From contig OZ024742.1 in assembly GCA_964016885.1 (NCBI GenBank), positions 336,102,001 through 336,166,000 of the forward strand: 64,000 nucleotides of DNA. Reading direction: 5' to 3'. The position numbers and the translations under genes were made by a program. Below the pieces are notes generated by a model. That model made no database searches. It was given only the letters and a program-made list of their open reading frames with translations, and was not told the origin of the DNA. Positions 6,114 to 58,335 of the stretch are shown piece after piece (position 1 is the stretch's first letter; the number at the start of each line of letters is the position of its first letter). The DNA comes from Eledone cirrhosa. Its lineage: Eukaryota.

Positions 6114-6288
6114 ATAGGAACGAGTAGGACCCCGACGGCTGAGCTCAAGCCGTTTTGACGTCTAGAATTAGCCGTCGAAACGGCTTGAGCTCAGCCGTCG
6201 GGGTCCTACTCGTTCCTATTACCCACTCTACTACCCTAAGTATTGAGTACTTTGGTGCGTTATGGTCCATCTGGTTCCTTACCTTCGT
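6114..6288 (+). mobile_element. TA-embedded palindromic PLE-terminus-like mini-element, family A (3' half of an HHR)
   Basis: Inverted repeat 6114-6219. The right arm has GAAAC-ggcttgagctcagcc-GTC (stem III ACGGCT/AGCCGT). The unpaired tail 6220-6288 has ACTC...TTGAGTAC. TA runs lie on both sides. Confidence 0.75.
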
Positions 6289-6573
6289 TATATATATATA
6301 TATATATATATATATATATATATATATATATATATATATATATATATATATATATATGTATATACCATTTATGTTGGATGGCTTAAATAATGGGTAGATA
6401 TGGTCATTCCGGTTAGCAACCATGCAAAACTAAAGCACTCAACGTTATGCAAATCATCCTTCGTAGATGCGATATCTCGTGGTTGGTGAGGAACGCAGTT
6501 AGATATTTCAAATACAACAGAAGGCCGGATACCAAACATTATTCTAATGTTGTAAAATTTAATATGTATGAAA

Positions 6574-6762
6574 GGGCGGTGGATTGGCAGTATCGGTAGA
6601 GAGTCGGACGCCATGCTTTCCAGCATAGTTACGTCCCTTTACGATCTGAGTTCAAATCCCGCCGAGGTTGACTTTGCCTTTCATCCTTACGGGGTCGATA
6701 AAATAAAGTACCAGTAAAGCACTGGGTGATTGCTGGCCTTGTGCCTAAAGTAGAAACAATTA
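6574..6762 (+). mobile_element. tRNA-derived SINE family 1, full length
   Basis: Near-consensus copy from ggcggtggattggcag to gtagaaacaatt. Confidence 0.92.
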
Positions 6763-8064
6763 TTCTAATGTTGTAATATCACAGTGCGTATGTCTATGGC
6801 TTGGTTACATCAATATATCCTGACGTAAGTATTTGGCGACTTCATCAGGTGTAAATTGCAAAGAATAGGTAGTCAATTACAGGATTACAGCAAATACAAA
6901 CAGAGAATAGATTTGATTTGGAGGCGGCCCGCCATTCAGTGCTATTGTTGTGACGAACAGTATCTGACCTTACTCATGAATGAAATCTTGGTCTTAAGAT
7001 GTTTATTACCAAAATCGATAATCGGTGATTGATAGTGTTTACTAAGATCAGTGATTTGCGTCTTTTTGGAGGGAGAGGGAGGGGTTCATGAAACAGATCT
7101 GTATAAGACGCCATAGGCTATGTTCATCATTTTGAAGTATGTATATTTACTTACATATTAATTGTTCAGGATATATGTACAAAATATTAGTGGTATCTCA
7201 ATTGATAATATACTCTGTTTTATATATCGTTTAAACTATATACAGATCAGAGGAAACCAAGACTTTGTAAATGTGTATAGAATCCTACACGTTGATTATC
7301 TAGTAATGTAAACATGTAACATTTACGTACTTCCCTGTAAATTGCAAGAGATATCTTTAATCAAAATGATATTTTTAATCAATTTTCGAAGCTTACATTC
7401 CTCGTAGTTTAGTTGATGAAGATTTCTTCTGATGAGACCCAATGAGGTTCGAAAATCAATTAATGATATGCATCATATTTTCCATTTACTGTGAACACAA
7501 GTAAATTCCGTATGTTTAAATGTCTATGTACCAAATGTGTATGTTTATTCATTCAAGTAGTATTGGTTAATTCTGTGCTGTAATATGACAGGCATAGCGA
7601 ATTCATTGATATATTTTTTATCAATACAATCATTTATATATATATACTATTACTCTCACTGTTCTTCCAAATTTACCTGTCATATGGCAGTTAACATTTG
7701 TGTGTATATATATATATATATATATATATATATATATATATATATATATATATATATAAATTCATATATCTACCTAGCTATATATATGTATATATACATA
7801 TTTAGATATATATTCCTATATACATATATATATATATTTAAACAATTAAGTTAAAAATGTACATCCACATATGTATACTGAAATACTAGTATGCATATGA
7901 ATACACACACGTATACATATGTAGATGTACCAAGTTTTTCACTGGTCACTTTACTGTGAGTGTCCAGCTATTCTGTATGTAAACACACAGACAAACCGGT
8001 TTTTAGAGTCATACTGGTTTTTGAGGAAACACCTTTCCTCTATTCTCCAGAAAGCCAGACAAGG

Positions 8065-53884: not shown

Positions 53885-56800
53885 TATATATATATATATA
53901 TATATATATATATATATATATATATATATATATATATATATATATATATATATATATATATATATATATATATATATATATATATATATATATATATATA
54001 TATATATATATATATACACACACACACATATATATACACACACACACAAACACGTATGGAGTAATATTACGGTTAATCATTATTTTTTAGGGTGGTAGAG
54101 TGGCAGAATCGTTAGTGTTGGATAAAATGTCTCATGGTATTTAGTCGTGACCGTGTACGTTCTGATTTCAAATCCTGTCGAGGTCAACTTTGCCTATCAT
54201 CCTTCCATGTTCGATAACATAAAGGACCAGTCAAGAACCGAGGTCGATGTAATCGATTTGTCCCTTCTGCAAATTGACATGAAAAAAATATTTATTGTTA
54301 GCATCATTGTCTTTGTCATCATCATCACTACCATCATCTGTAGTAGTAATAGCGATGGTGAGGGTAGCATTAATAATGGTAAGGATAGTAGTAGTTGTAG
54401 TAGTATTAGAAGTCTCATTTTTTATTGCTTACTGTCACTGTAGAAACCTGGACGCATGCAGTGTTTTCTTCTTCTTTTTCTTCTCTCTCTCTCTCTCTCC
54501 TTCTCTCTCTCTCAGAAACCAGCTGTGTTCAGATTTGAGAATGGTATGCTCAGCCAGGCTTAAATGTTCATGGCATATATGAGACGATGTCTCCTTTACG
54601 CCTCCACCAGTAGACAAGGGCCCACGGACGGAATCCTGAAAACCGATCCAACAAAAGCTCACAATTATTTTTATCTGCTCCAGAAAGATGGAAAATAATG
54701 TAAACCTTATACAGAATTTGAACTAAAATACATATTATACTGAAGTAGCACTAAGTAAGACTGCTCTAATTATTTATCCAGAGGGCCGCTTATGATGTAA
54801 TGATATAGGGAAACCTAGGCGTAACATATCATTTACACACACACAAGCATACGCACTCCTACGCAAACACACACGCATACACACTCACACGCAAACACAC
54901 ACACACACACACACACACACACACACACACACACACACACACACACACACACACACACATACACACACATATATATATATATATATATATATATATAGTT
55001 ACCCATAAAGCCAGATTATATTTTTCTTATGATTAACTAAAATAGCGATAGGGTCTGCAAAACCTTGGGCATAATGTCATTGAAAATGACATTTTACGAG
55101 CTAAATTTCCAAGGTTTCTTTATCTTGTGTGTCTGTCGTGAAAGCTGACATTCATCTACTTCTATTTCCAACGCAATCTGCAGAAACATCAGCGCATTTA
55201 TAACATTATAGGCTTCGCCGGAAATGCGTTGAAAGAATGCTCATATAATTGTCATCTTTGCCTCCAATAGATCACTCAGCTAAAAGCTTTTCAATAGCTT
55301 GTCAGCCGACTTTAAATATCCATATAACCAAATTGGCTTAAGTTCTTCATATATATATTTTTTATCTACTTTGCTCCAAACCATCAGAATTAATACAGAA
55401 GTACTTTGCTCTAAACATCAGCTCTATTATCGCAGTTGAAATATTGATTTCTAATTTAGGCACACGGTCAGCCAATTTTGTAATGTGTAAAGTTGATTAA
55501 ATCAAATACAGTACAGACCTCGGTGGGATTTGAACTCGGAAATTAAAGAGTTGGTACATTCTCTACCAATTCTGCCAATTTATCAGTCTTTTAAAAGACT
55601 ACCTTGTATCGACCCCCTAAAGGATGAAAGCAAAGTTGACCTTGTGGCATTTGAAACCAGAAGGTAAATGGTCCGATCAAATACCGTACAGCATTTCTTG
55701 GAGTCTCTAACAATTCTGTCTATTCATTACCCTGCTAAAGTCGTAATATTAATGTAAATAATTGCTTTTAAAACTAATCCAATATTTTAAATTAACAGAA
55801 TCATTTACTGTACAGATAAAAATTTCATAGTTTTATGTTTCTAAATATTAGTACTAACATAGTCAGGTTCGGCGCAACCGTTAATATCAAATAGGTAGCC
55901 GAATACTGCACAGTTCTCTACAGGCGAATTACTGAACTACTAGTTTTATAGAAATGTTAATAATTAACTTAAATATGTAACAATTTCAAGTGATCAATAA
56001 ATACATCAATGAACAATATTGCTTTGTAGCATGACTGCAGAAATATACAAAGCGGTGGGGAGGGTCGTATTTTATTTGACCTGTCACATGATTTGACGTG
56101 GGTGAGAGATTATATAATAGAAAATTCAGGCATGGTAATTTTCTTAGTGTGATAAGAGCAAGAAATCTCAAAATTTAAGTTCATCAGTTTAGTAAACTGT
56201 AAGTTGAAGTTATTTTATTTGGAAGAATGAGGCGCATAAGTTGGATAAACGTACCTCCATTGTAGAGCTAGTCATGGGCGCTAAATATACGGGCGCAGTC
56301 CTGGCTATAATTGTAATGCAAACAACCTTTTGCAAAATATATCCCTTTTCCCAAATTATAAAAATCGTGACATTTTAAGTACCAAAATTCCTTAGTTTAT
56401 ATTTCTAAACATTCTTTAATTTTAGAAATACAGGGGTCATGAACATAGCACTTACAATGCTTTCTAGAAGAGATACAAAACCATAATAGGCTTCGAAAAT
56501 ATATTTGTATTATTCCCACTATACCCCTCCTCCCGCACACACTCACTCACTGGTATTATTTCTTCCAAATGCCAACAGCGACGACATTGTAGAATCGACA
56601 AGTAATTCATTGCCTTGTATTAGCGTATTAGATGTTCTACAGTGACAAAAATAGCTATTTGCGGCAGCCCAGCCTCTTATCCAAGGTACTGGGGATAGAA
56701 TCATCTCTCAACCCTCAAAGTCTATAGAAAAGGGTATTAAGTACTAACCTTATAGATTCTTACCGTTTATAATGGTTTCTGTTTTAGGCACAAAGCCAAC

Positions 56801-57654
56801 AATTTAGTGGAGGGGGCGGGGTCTATTAAATCGACCCCAGTGCGTTTCTGTAAGGATGAAAGGTAAAGCTAAGCTCGGTGTATTTGAACTCAGAGCACAA
56901 AGGGACGTAACTCTATGCCGCAAAGCATGATGACATGCCAACACAAGAGCAAGAATGAAGAGTTCATTCTACTGACATGGCTTTGAAAATAAGGCTTGTT
57001 TGCATAATTGCAAACGAATCGAATGTTGTTATTAATATTCGAAAAACTCAGATTACATTTATTTTATATATATATATATATATATATATATATATATATA
57101 TATATATATATATATATATATATATAGAGAGAGAGAGAGAGAGAGAGAGAGAGAGAGAGAGAGAGAGAGAGAGAGAGAGAGAGAGAACGAGACAAAGAAT
57201 AAGAAATTTTCGCTTATAAAAATATATTACTATAATTCTCAACAAATGAAATCCAATCATCGTTATTTCAAGAAGCCATTATTATTCTTACCTCTAAACA
57301 TTGTAGCATTCTCCGATATAACCATCCACGCAGTTAATATTGATATCTTCTAGTCTTTTCTTTCTTTTCTTGTGTTTCATACCTTTCATTGTTTTCCCAT
57401 ATAAGGGACCATTGAAAAACACTGCACATATCACCGCAGAACAAATTTGGATAGGACACTACTAGTGAATGAATGCATTCATTTTATATGTTATACAGTA
57501 TTTTCCACAAAAATAGATGGTGAGTTGCGGGAAGAGGTACTCATATCGAAAGACAATGGTAATATAAACATACCTACAGCATACACACGTCATATATATT
57601 TATATATATATATATGTGTATATATATATATATATATATATATATATAATATAT

Positions 57655-58335
57655 AAGATCAAAAGATGGTTAAAAGAGTTCCATGTATTTTATTATGCGC
57701 ACTTCAAAAACAAATATCATCATGCAATAACATTTGTGTTTTCATCAGATAAAATAGGAAGACATGATATGAAGGTTAAAAACACTTGTGGATAGTGCAG
57801 TTTTAAATCAACATATGAAAAGTAGTTTTAGATTGATGTGTGATATTAGGGGGTGGGGGGGGGGCATTTTTTGAAGGGGGGTTGGGGGGGTTGGAAAGGA
57901 TGAAAAAGAGGAGATGAGAGTAAAAAGTGGAAGGGGAGGAGTATAATGAGGAAGGATGAGATAGGAGGAGAGATGGGTGATAGAGAGAGAGAGATAGCTT
58001 TTATAACTGAGAAAAATATATTGTTTTACATAGTGAGGTTGAAAAACCGTTGGAAGATAATGTATAAATTAAAAGAATTTGAAAATTAACGAAGAGAAAA
58101 ATAATGTAAAGTTAAGGTTTGTATATTGAAGGGTTTAATAATATGTGCGATGAAAAGAAATTGTTAATATGTATTAAGAATAATATTTAAGGGTTTAATA
58201 ATATGTGCGATGGAACTCTTTTAACCATCTTTTGATCTTATATATTATGTATACTCCAGTCCTACAAACTGTAGAGTGCTTCTTATCCGTTCTCTGCATT
58301 GCTTTATTGTACTACAATAAAACTCACCTCCTACA
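57655..58335. mobile_element. Family C PLE-like fragment: long inverted body plus short direct terminus
   Basis: 57655-57685 is inverted relative to 58211-58240. The minus-strand HHR at 57686-57756 reads tattttat CTGATGA...GAAG tgcgca ta ataaaata. The tail ACTCcagtcctacaaactgtAGAGTGC leads to (TA)n. Confidence 0.78.

Follow-up and report, generated by a model that had tools for sequence, protein, structure and literature searches.

A short hairpin motif of the form RCTC...GAGYRC was analyzed in a 64,000-nt stretch of the 3.0-Gb genome of Eledone cirrhosa (assembly GCA_964016885.1, contig OZ024742.1, positions 336,102,001 to 336,166,000), hereafter the window, in whose own numbering all positions without a locus name are given. 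On balance, we regard the motif as a genuine stem-loop with covarying pairs, formed by the sense strand of Penelope-like elements (PLEs) of the Hydra clade and of their short derivatives, where it is likely an RNA signal standing beside the point at which reverse transcription starts. The window holds 83 merged (TA)n runs and numerous short units, including those of families A to G. The order within a unit is (TA)n, inverted arm, turn, direct arm, a tail of 65–90 nt including the hairpin, and again (TA)n, and (TA)n is the insertion target both of the window units and in a 1.2-Mb genomic sample.

The motif was present at all 14 sites listed in the preliminary description of the window, each on the strand given there, with coordinates agreeing within 0–3 nt; five sites were shifted by 1–3 nt (to 9815, 10038, 16531, 33668–33697 and 53732). 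A total of 16 matches to ACTC-N8-38-GAGTRC were found in the window, against a mean of 2.91 (standard deviation 1.78, maximum 8) in 100 dinucleotide shuffles. The GCTC..GAGCRC form taken alone gave two matches against 0.45 expected, a number reached in 8 of 100 shuffles and thus not significant. The idea that this form represents a compensatory swap of the first pair from A-U to G-C was therefore tested on an independent sample of 1.2 Mb from the same genome, for which nine chromosomes were sampled at round coordinates in 120 pieces of 10 kb each. There, N1-CTC..GAG-N1′-RC was followed by (TA)5+ at 25–100 nt in 58 of 105 cases with A-T and in 10 of 33 cases with G-C as the first pair, compared with 0–5 cases for each of the other 14 combinations (27 cases in total), so that the first pair is A-U or G-C and hardly ever a mismatch, and the proposed swap was borne out.

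One motif site absent from the earlier list, 34293–34318 (−), was judged real, while two further matches, 39787–39806 (+) and 56873–56898 (+), are probably due to chance or related to short interspersed elements (SINEs) and were set aside because they lack a (TA)n context; the former sits in a SINE-type repeat and recurs in another locus, L055. A covariance model, built mostly from hairpins of other species, recovered 12 window sites at E ≤ 5, with 10 of them among the 14 previously listed, and the four listed sites that it missed are variants, one with a 1-nt bulge (11740) and three with long loops (13514, 20657 and 40123). In the octopus genome, 30 of 35 covariance-model matches carried (TA)5+ 20–100 nt downstream, against 6.2% of random positions.

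The stem-loop consists of four outer pairs, an inner stem of two to four covarying pairs and a 2-nt bulge on the 3′ side, and the whole module reads (U)AUA, 2–5 nt, R-CUC, inner stem, loop, bulge, GAG-Y and RC-U-N-U. The first inner pair is C-G or U-A, the second and third are A-U, G-C, U-A or C-G, and the bulge is U followed by U, C or A. The stem is followed by RC and, in the relatives described below, by U (98%), any base and U (94%). A 2-nt bulge makes the first inner pair Watson-Crick in every one of 84 distinct hairpins from other species and in 44 of 54 from the octopus genome, whereas bulges of 0, 1, 3 or 4 nt leave it Watson-Crick in only 0–10 of about 84 and 3–9 of about 54, respectively; no fitted alignment entered this register test.

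Pairing was also assessed in three sets of sequences. A gapless class of 23-nt hairpins (21 sequences) has 98.6% of its cells paired, with four of the seven pairs changed on both sides, and slid registers give 20–55%. The 84 distinct cross-species hairpins are 97.9% paired with 86 double-sided changes in a covariance-model alignment, and the 25 distinct own-genome hairpins are 98.3% paired, with the first pair being A-U in 14 and G-C in 11. In all three runs, the observed value was reached by 0 of 500 shuffles and slid registers were 15–55% paired, but these shuffle counts are not probabilities, because the cross-species and own-genome alignments were fitted to the model and the copies within a family are related. 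The model itself was built from the gapless class; an alignment of 123 hairpins by MAFFT right-justified them and was left unused in favor of the gapless class and the covariance-model alignments, while the register test and the matrix test are free of the weakness of a fitted alignment. At inner pairs 1–3, a total of 25 G-U pairs were counted against eight A-C pairs, and this excess favors folding of the sense strand. Pairing is thus kept through double changes both in the octopus genome and in distant relatives, and the outer stem described earlier stands, though most of the covariation lies in the inner stem, which that description had overlooked. The hairpin contains neither CUGANGA nor a GAAA core and is therefore not a hammerhead itself, and a search of the window against Rfam gave no match at the gathering score.

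Apart from low-complexity frames, the window contains no long open reading frame (ORF), and the only Pfam match among 150 of its 258 ORFs was a weak one to RVT_1 in the remnant of a long interspersed element (LINE). The owner of the hairpin was therefore sought genome-wide. Locus L127, from the random sample, carries two family C hairpins separated by 3.4 kb. An ORF lies 262 nt ahead of each of them, and it has 74,596 first-look candidates in the genome, 140 of which were scored and are 85–100% identical. At a second locus, L169, two hairpins stand 2577 nt apart, which is the unit length, and the frame between them is open for 722 codons. Its translation contains DKT, YRDD, RWR in place of RWK, a linker CxCX5C (CSCPKPEAC) and a CxxC (CGLC) near the end, and its C-terminal part reads VIY...YVG...RFKER...H, with no cysteines between GIY and YIG and no CCHH. 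The 722-aa protein had no match in the local Pfam copy or in sequence searches of PDB. Its nuclease part matched the GIY-YIG domain of a canonical PLE of the same genome weakly by hhalign (E = 4e-4, probability 34%), and homologues are listed under Pfam PF26215 and PF28514, which fall outside the Pfam copy used. A structure predicted by AF2 from 30 homologues (pLDDT 81.8) had its best Foldseek matches in telomerase TERTs (E = 2.9e-7), as would be expected of a PLE reverse transcriptase (RT). A putative hammerhead core, CUGANGA-N7-17-GAAA with a flanking stem I of CCGAG/CUCGG, was read manually 50 nt upstream of the hairpin in this element; an Rfam search of L169 1900–5000 gave no match at E ≤ 1, leaving the hammerhead-type core unscored.

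Judged by its motifs, the fold search and published clade criteria, the owner is a single-ORF Hydra-clade PLE less than 3 kb in length. What the window contains as family C is the 5′-truncated 3′ end of the autonomous element in L127 and L169. The window families had earlier been called unrelated, which does not hold for their origin, since all of them carry the 3′ module of one PLE clade. Outside the hairpin, only five of 105 pairs of flanks exceeded their own 99% shuffle level, four of the five being same-family pairs, so that apart from same-family pairs the window families have nothing detectable in common beyond the hairpin. The tail of family A is 99–100% identical across 40 scored genomic copies, and the short non-coding derivatives keep the hairpin at 99–100% identity.

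Three other owners were considered and rejected. A Naiad-clade PLE, which has an N-terminal nuclease, a CxC domain and a length of 3.4–4.4 kb and was suggested by the (TA)n targeting, was ruled out by the C-terminal position of the nuclease-like domain and the 2.6-kb unit. The canonical PLEs of this genome with a C-terminal GIY-YIG domain (10,597 first-look candidates; loci L013–L042) were ruled out by 3′ ends without such a hairpin. DNA-transposon, miniature inverted-repeat transposable element (MITE) and Helitron identities were ruled out by the asymmetry of the units, their single tail, variable 5′ truncation, a tandem of the pseudo-long terminal repeat (pLTR) type and the RT-bearing partner. 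The canonical PLEs at L033–L042, on several chromosomes, have open frames of up to 1096 codons, and the 3′ end of one of their families consists of (CA)n and internal (TA)n followed by TTCTCTTCATCTTAAC.

The hairpin is also conserved in other organisms. A total of 499 protein relatives were obtained at E ≤ 0.001, about 700 aa in length and mostly on contigs of about 2.5 kb, with one named as bryozoan. Hairpins were counted in 80 loci from the metagenome-contig scan, whose products are 36–43% identical to the owner protein, and 68 of these loci contain at least one, mostly as GCTC...GAGCAC. For GCTC..GAGCRC, 127 occurrences fall on the ORF strand and 12 on the opposite one, with 2–28 for the remaining first-pair combinations, and 111 of 117 covariance-model matches are on the ORF strand. 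In 35 of the 80 loci, the hairpins form a pair 35–54 nt apart that brackets the tail. The first hairpin lies about 170–400 nt past the stop codon and 36–57 nt after a hammerhead-type core (52 matches on the ORF strand, in 40 of the 80 loci, against seven on the other strand), and the second stands just past the tail end and finishes 5–44 nt before the ATG. UA-rich sequence precedes both hairpins, and at insertion ends of the relatives (L207, L232, L237 and L219) the tail stops at TATA 2–7 nt before the place of the second hairpin (2–4 nt in L207 and L237) and then passes into flank or (TA)n. The corresponding leader of L169 (2398–2532) measures about 134 nt from the tail end to the likely ATG (MNLYELNYSLKNIP...), where the relatives have the second hairpin plus 5–44 nt, and contains a GAGAGCGCTCT palindrome followed by TATATAT.

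The ends of individual copies were then compared with the position of the hairpin. Among 117 hairpins with (TA)n after them, 57 have an upstream inverted arm, which runs through the hairpin in 14 cases, giving full head-to-head pairs such as L007, and stops before it in 43. In 36 of these 43 the arm stops 2–9 nt away, and in the other seven at 11–28 nt, two of which are artefacts of a nested motif call. The clustering of arm ends near RCTC that had been proposed is thus real, though the distance is 2–9 nt rather than 3–12 nt, and the (TA)n expected at the outer end of the inverted arm was found directly flanking it over at least 8 nt in 27 of 43 cases. Probes for the arm ends of five families gave 25 copies bearing a tail, 31 copies passing directly into (TA)n without a tail, and 11 others. 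Copies thus terminate at their 3′ side in either of two ways, at the end of the tail or 2–9 nt 5′ of the hairpin, and the hairpin lies just inside the longer form. Eighteen of the 31 tail-less copies have an inverted partner within 1.5 kb and 13 have none. In 54% of cases a TATA or ATAT has its end 0–8 nt upstream of the hairpin, compared with 8% for control positions.

A biochemical precedent for two start points is available from another PLE clade. Frangieh et al. 2024 (PMC11167929) reported that the purified protein of a Poseidon element from Anolis carolinensis (PAc) cleaves and extends both target strands, that in vitro its reverse transcription begins within a stem-loop that follows the hammerhead, at two internal sites, that the genomic tail of PAc is the sequence between the two start sites, and that the start site inside the stem-loop is not homologous to the target. 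The elements described here resemble PAc in being PLEs with an upstream hammerhead, for which there is a putative core here, two alternative 3′ boundaries, a tail that is the optional stretch between them, and a stem-loop at the predicted start region; use of both target strands would likewise account for the head-to-head copies. They differ in belonging to the Hydra rather than the Penelope/Poseidon clade, in marking each site with a short hairpin that has an invariant CUC/GAG core and covarying inner pairs, in the length of the tail (65–90 nt including the hairpin, against 30–40 bp), and in having their sites in untranslated regions (UTRs) rather than 111–118 nt into the ORF. It is the same order as in Poseidon, namely hammerhead (putative here), first site, tail and second site, with a hairpin after each site, that leads us to read the hairpin as a start signal for the RT.

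Under this reading, the PLE protein would bind the hairpin in the RNA, and the end of the nicked (TA)n target would pair with the UA-rich stretch 5′ of the hairpin and prime cDNA synthesis. Starting at the downstream site would yield tailed copies and starting at the upstream site tail-less ones; if both target strands were extended, a tailed copy and a tail-less inverted copy could be joined into the palindrome-plus-tail unit. That the hairpin causes initiation is likely, judging by its position, its conservation and the analogy with PAc. According to the preliminary description, PLE copies have in common a cis signal by which the tail and a second point of priming are defined, and the clade of the owner, the covariation, the two 3′ ends, the second hairpin of the relatives and the PAc precedent all support this proposal. 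More tentatively, and with less than even confidence, we suggest that a portable module of about 30 nt (UAUA, spacer, CUC/GAG hairpin, U-rich 2-nt bulge and RC-U-N-U) may both recruit a telomerase-like RT and tell it where to start, a function kept at 36–43% protein identity, that two modules per element may set the start points and thereby create the tail, and that any RNA carrying one, the many short families of this genome among them, might be copied into (TA)n.

Several observations weigh against a start-signal role, in addition to the fitting of the alignments mentioned above. In the elements of the octopus genome, no second hairpin was seen past the tail end, either at the L169 junction or in the window tandem at 33540–34400, so the hairpin cannot be the only determinant of a start at the tail end here. 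Unlike in PAc, the junction lies beside the hairpin, 2–9 nt 5′ of it, in UA-rich sequence homologous to (TA)n; the junctions fall in TATA/ATAT-rich sequence matching the target, so that the lack of homology between start site and target seen in PAc does not extend to these elements, and UA microhomology alone could place the junction. Folding of the short hairpins is weak, with minimum free energies of −1.6 to −9 kcal/mol. Tail-less copies scored as solitary have no partner within 1.5 kb, and at least one of them (L127) belongs to a longer inverted pair. Finally, five of the eight window palindromes have loops of only 0, 6, 8, 10 and 12 nt, which a fold-back of the cDNA explains more simply than two independent cDNAs do.

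An RNA function other than initiation, such as control of translation or of the 5′ UTR, stability, export, packaging or an aid to hammerhead folding, with the junctions adjoining the hairpin only through pairing of UAUA with (TA)n, is in our judgement unlikely. The second hairpin of the relatives does occupy a typical place for a translation element, 5–44 nt before the ATG, the first follows the hammerhead-type core by 36–57 nt, UA-rich sequence precedes both, and the octopus elements form tail ends without a second hairpin; yet in the relatives the module of UAUA, spacer and hairpin stands at both junction-forming sites, the short non-coding derivatives keep their hairpin almost unchanged with nothing to translate, and the published start sites of a PLE lie within a stem-loop (PMC11167929).

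Of about the same low probability is a fold-back mechanism, in which cDNA primed at the tail end folds at the point of 5′ truncation and copies itself, with the hairpin serving as a stop or resolution site that is bound by protein or cut by the GIY-YIG nuclease and at which the product would be joined to (TA)n. The palindromes of the window bear on it in two ways, because the short loops listed above and the family A units, in which the position of the turn varies and the outer arm edge is constant, are what a fold-back would leave, whereas the longer loops of 39, 64, 100 and 525 nt are unfit for a simple snap-back. The 14 of 57 inverted arms that cross the hairpin are as expected of an unblocked fold-back, and the tail has been ascribed to nuclease-mediated resolution by Craig et al. 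2021 (PMC8557442), but for 13 of the 31 tail-less copies, which end at this same boundary, no inverted partner lies within 1.5 kb, and with PAc in vitro the extension of either target strand begins at the same internal sites (PMC11167929).

Very improbable, lastly, is a duplex-DNA recognition site of the GIY-YIG nuclease that homes into existing copies and so forms tandems, for although the tail is needed for nuclease recognition in D. virilis Penelope, as cited by Frangieh et al. (PMC11167929), and tandem and nested copies are common, recognition of a duplex has no need of the half-to-half pairing that has survived 86 double-sided changes, the predominance of G-U over A-C pairs indicates a folded sense strand, and insertions lie in plain (TA)n rather than in hairpin sequence.

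Short 3′ RNA structures that are presumed to recruit an RT and are shared with non-coding dependants occur in stringent-type LINEs and their SINEs, such as UnaL2 and UnaSINE1 of the eel, and in the 3′ UTR of R2. Stringent-type LINEs are non-LTR elements that start at the 3′ end of their RNA, where a microsatellite-like end pairs with the target. The hairpin described here is likewise a short structure common to an autonomous element and its short non-coding dependants, and here too a microsatellite-like end would pair with the target, but it is associated with two predicted start points, one of them internal, and with a telomerase-like RT and a GIY-YIG nuclease. In telomerase RNA, a template-boundary or TERT-binding helix near the copied stretch positions TERT; a few nucleotides are copied repeatedly, and the helix limits copying. 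This helix is comparable in adjoining a copied stretch and in serving a TERT-type RT, TERT being the best match of the modelled owner protein, and it differs in that the whole 2.6-kb RNA is copied in the PLE and the hairpin lies 3′ of the predicted start point.

Within PLEs, Craig et al. 2021 (PMC8557442) define the Hydra clade by a length of <3 kb, a C-terminal nuclease, DKT, CxCX5C, the absence of CCHH, (TA)n targets and a hammerhead. The octopus element agrees with that account in its short single ORF within <3 kb, DKT, CxCX5C, CxxC, lack of CCHH, insertion into (TA)n, pLTR-type tandems and inverted 5′-truncated copies, has a putative hammerhead core, and departs from it in having RWR in place of RWK. 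Craig et al. described a small number of families of Hydra elements, compared with the 74,596 first-look candidates for one family here. A word search of the main text and supplement of that paper turned up neither hairpin nor stem-loop, and paired hairpins are therefore not described in it; no description of such a hairpin was found in the literature covered by our search, which lay outside subscription journals and Repbase notes. The PLE tail, inverted copies and (TA)n targeting are already known, as is internal initiation for one Poseidon element. What the present analysis adds is the assignment of the hairpin to a clade, its complete structure, tests of covariation, its conservation beyond this genome and its arrangement in pairs.

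The choice of where copying of the RNA starts is the least understood step of the PLE cycle, and its biochemistry comes only from one vertebrate Poseidon element. In the much more compact Hydra clade, each predicted start point has a defined signal of about 25 nt for which covariation provides support, so that what specifies internal initiation becomes a question open to mutate-and-rescue. It would also explain why many short and unlike families have one tail feature in common, since they would borrow the same enzyme, and where a genome is rich in (TA)n, annotators can use the hairpin to recognize the true 3′ end of a Hydra-type PLE.

The individual sites in the window vary in layout. In the first family A copy (+), a palindrome at 6117–6216 has 44-nt arms (inverted arm 6117–6160, direct arm 6173–6216) with a 12-nt loop, and its outer edge abuts (TA)n. 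The hairpin (ACTC-TACT-loop-AGTA-TT-GAGT-AC) follows at 6225–6250, 5–8 nt past the arm end, with a covariance-model match of 21.5 bits, and the remainder of the tail (6251–6288) leads into (TA)n at 6289–6356. A second family A copy (−) has its hairpin at 10038–10063, a palindrome at 10072–10125 and a tail at 9991–10037. The family B hairpin at 9815–9835 (−) has arms at 9843–9884 and 9924–9965 and a tail at 9769–9814; it and the second family A hairpin both match the covariance model. Family C is represented at 11740–11761 (−) by a hairpin with a 1-nt bulge (arms 11772–11834 and 11841–11903, tail 11704–11739), and family D at 11978–12004 (−) by one scoring E = 4.2 with the model (arms 12011–12172 and 12181–12342, tail 11932–11977).

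Two long-loop variants were observed, one at 13514–13555 (+), whose tail extends to 13623 before (TA)n and whose homologue in L036 has an arm that stops 4 nt short of the hairpin, and one at 20657–20718 (−), with an inner stem of CGT/ACG, a TT bulge, a tail reaching (TA)n at 20563–20580 and no covariance-model match. Covariance-model matches were obtained for the hairpin of a short 5′-truncated copy at 16531–16552 (−), which has a body at 16553–16613 and no inverted arm, and for a diverged family B copy at 35355–35376 (+), where the motif is also present. They were likewise obtained for both units of a partial tandem in the pLTR layout (−), the downstream one at 33668–33697 with a tail to (TA)n at 33564–33591, and the upstream partial one at 34293–34318, which retains a complete tail and is the site missing from the earlier list. 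The family E hairpins at 30470–30496 (−; body 30497–30665, tail 30419–30469) and 58253–58279 (+; tail 58280–58334, then (TA)n at 58335–58356) match the model as well. The 36 nt preceding the hairpin of one family E copy match the 5′ start of the other in reverse complement (57649–58245 compared with 30497–30665).

The family G hairpin at 53732–53754 (−), with G-C as its first pair, is the best covariance-model match of the window (31.1 bits), with arms at 53763–53790 and 53855–53882 and a tail at 53684–53731. The weakest member is the family F candidate at 40123–40194 (−), which has GCTC..GAGCAC around a 62-nt interior, arms within 40200–40946 and no covariance-model match. Tail-less ends are also present in the window, namely a solitary family A arm end at 38155–38176 (−) with (TA)n directly after it and no inverted partner within 1.5 kb, and a family C arm end at 21770–21791 (−) that was scored solitary and has (TA)n within 16 nt. 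A family B-like arm at 13960–14022 (−), read directly and outside the scoring of the arm-end probes, lies between two (TA)n runs without hairpin or tail.

In addition, the window contains other repeats. Another palindromic family, at 10521–10703 and 56990–57060, has arms with ACTCAGAT and ends in ...GTAGAGCGAA(TA)n, and may represent a MITE or a further type of tail. Next to (TA)n at 7838–8974 lie large nested duplications, both inverted and direct, with arms of 157 and 222 nt and loops of 292–758 nt; no ACTC..GAGT hairpin was seen there. A hammerhead-type core following the CUGANGA-N7-17-GAAA descriptor is located at 7425–7455 (+), consisting of CTGATGAG, 15 nt and CGAAA; it lies outside all hairpin-tail units and has no Rfam match at the gathering score. 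The LINE-type element at 14500–16450 (−) is decayed, with the weak RVT_1 match at 15070–15477 and an endonuclease-like stretch upstream, and ends near (TA)n at 14023–14120 without a hairpin tail. The tRNA-like heads of SINE-type repeats are found at 6580–6680 and 39700–39800.

Simple and satellite repeats are extensive. Over the first 600 kb of the 1.2-Mb sample (L043–L162), 4.7% of the bases lie in runs of (TA)5+, and many 10-kb stretches of the sample consist of kilobases of interrupted (TA)n. At 41000–47119 of the window, about 1.1 kb of (TA)n (555 units) leads straight into a 5-kb ACAACA array with a 15-nt higher-order unit, and the extreme GC and AT skew of this region is due to the (TA)n run and the array. 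A C/A-rich satellite with nested periods of 30, 40, 70 and 150 nt occupies 62089–63356 and is followed by a (TCATCA)n array at 63422–63912.

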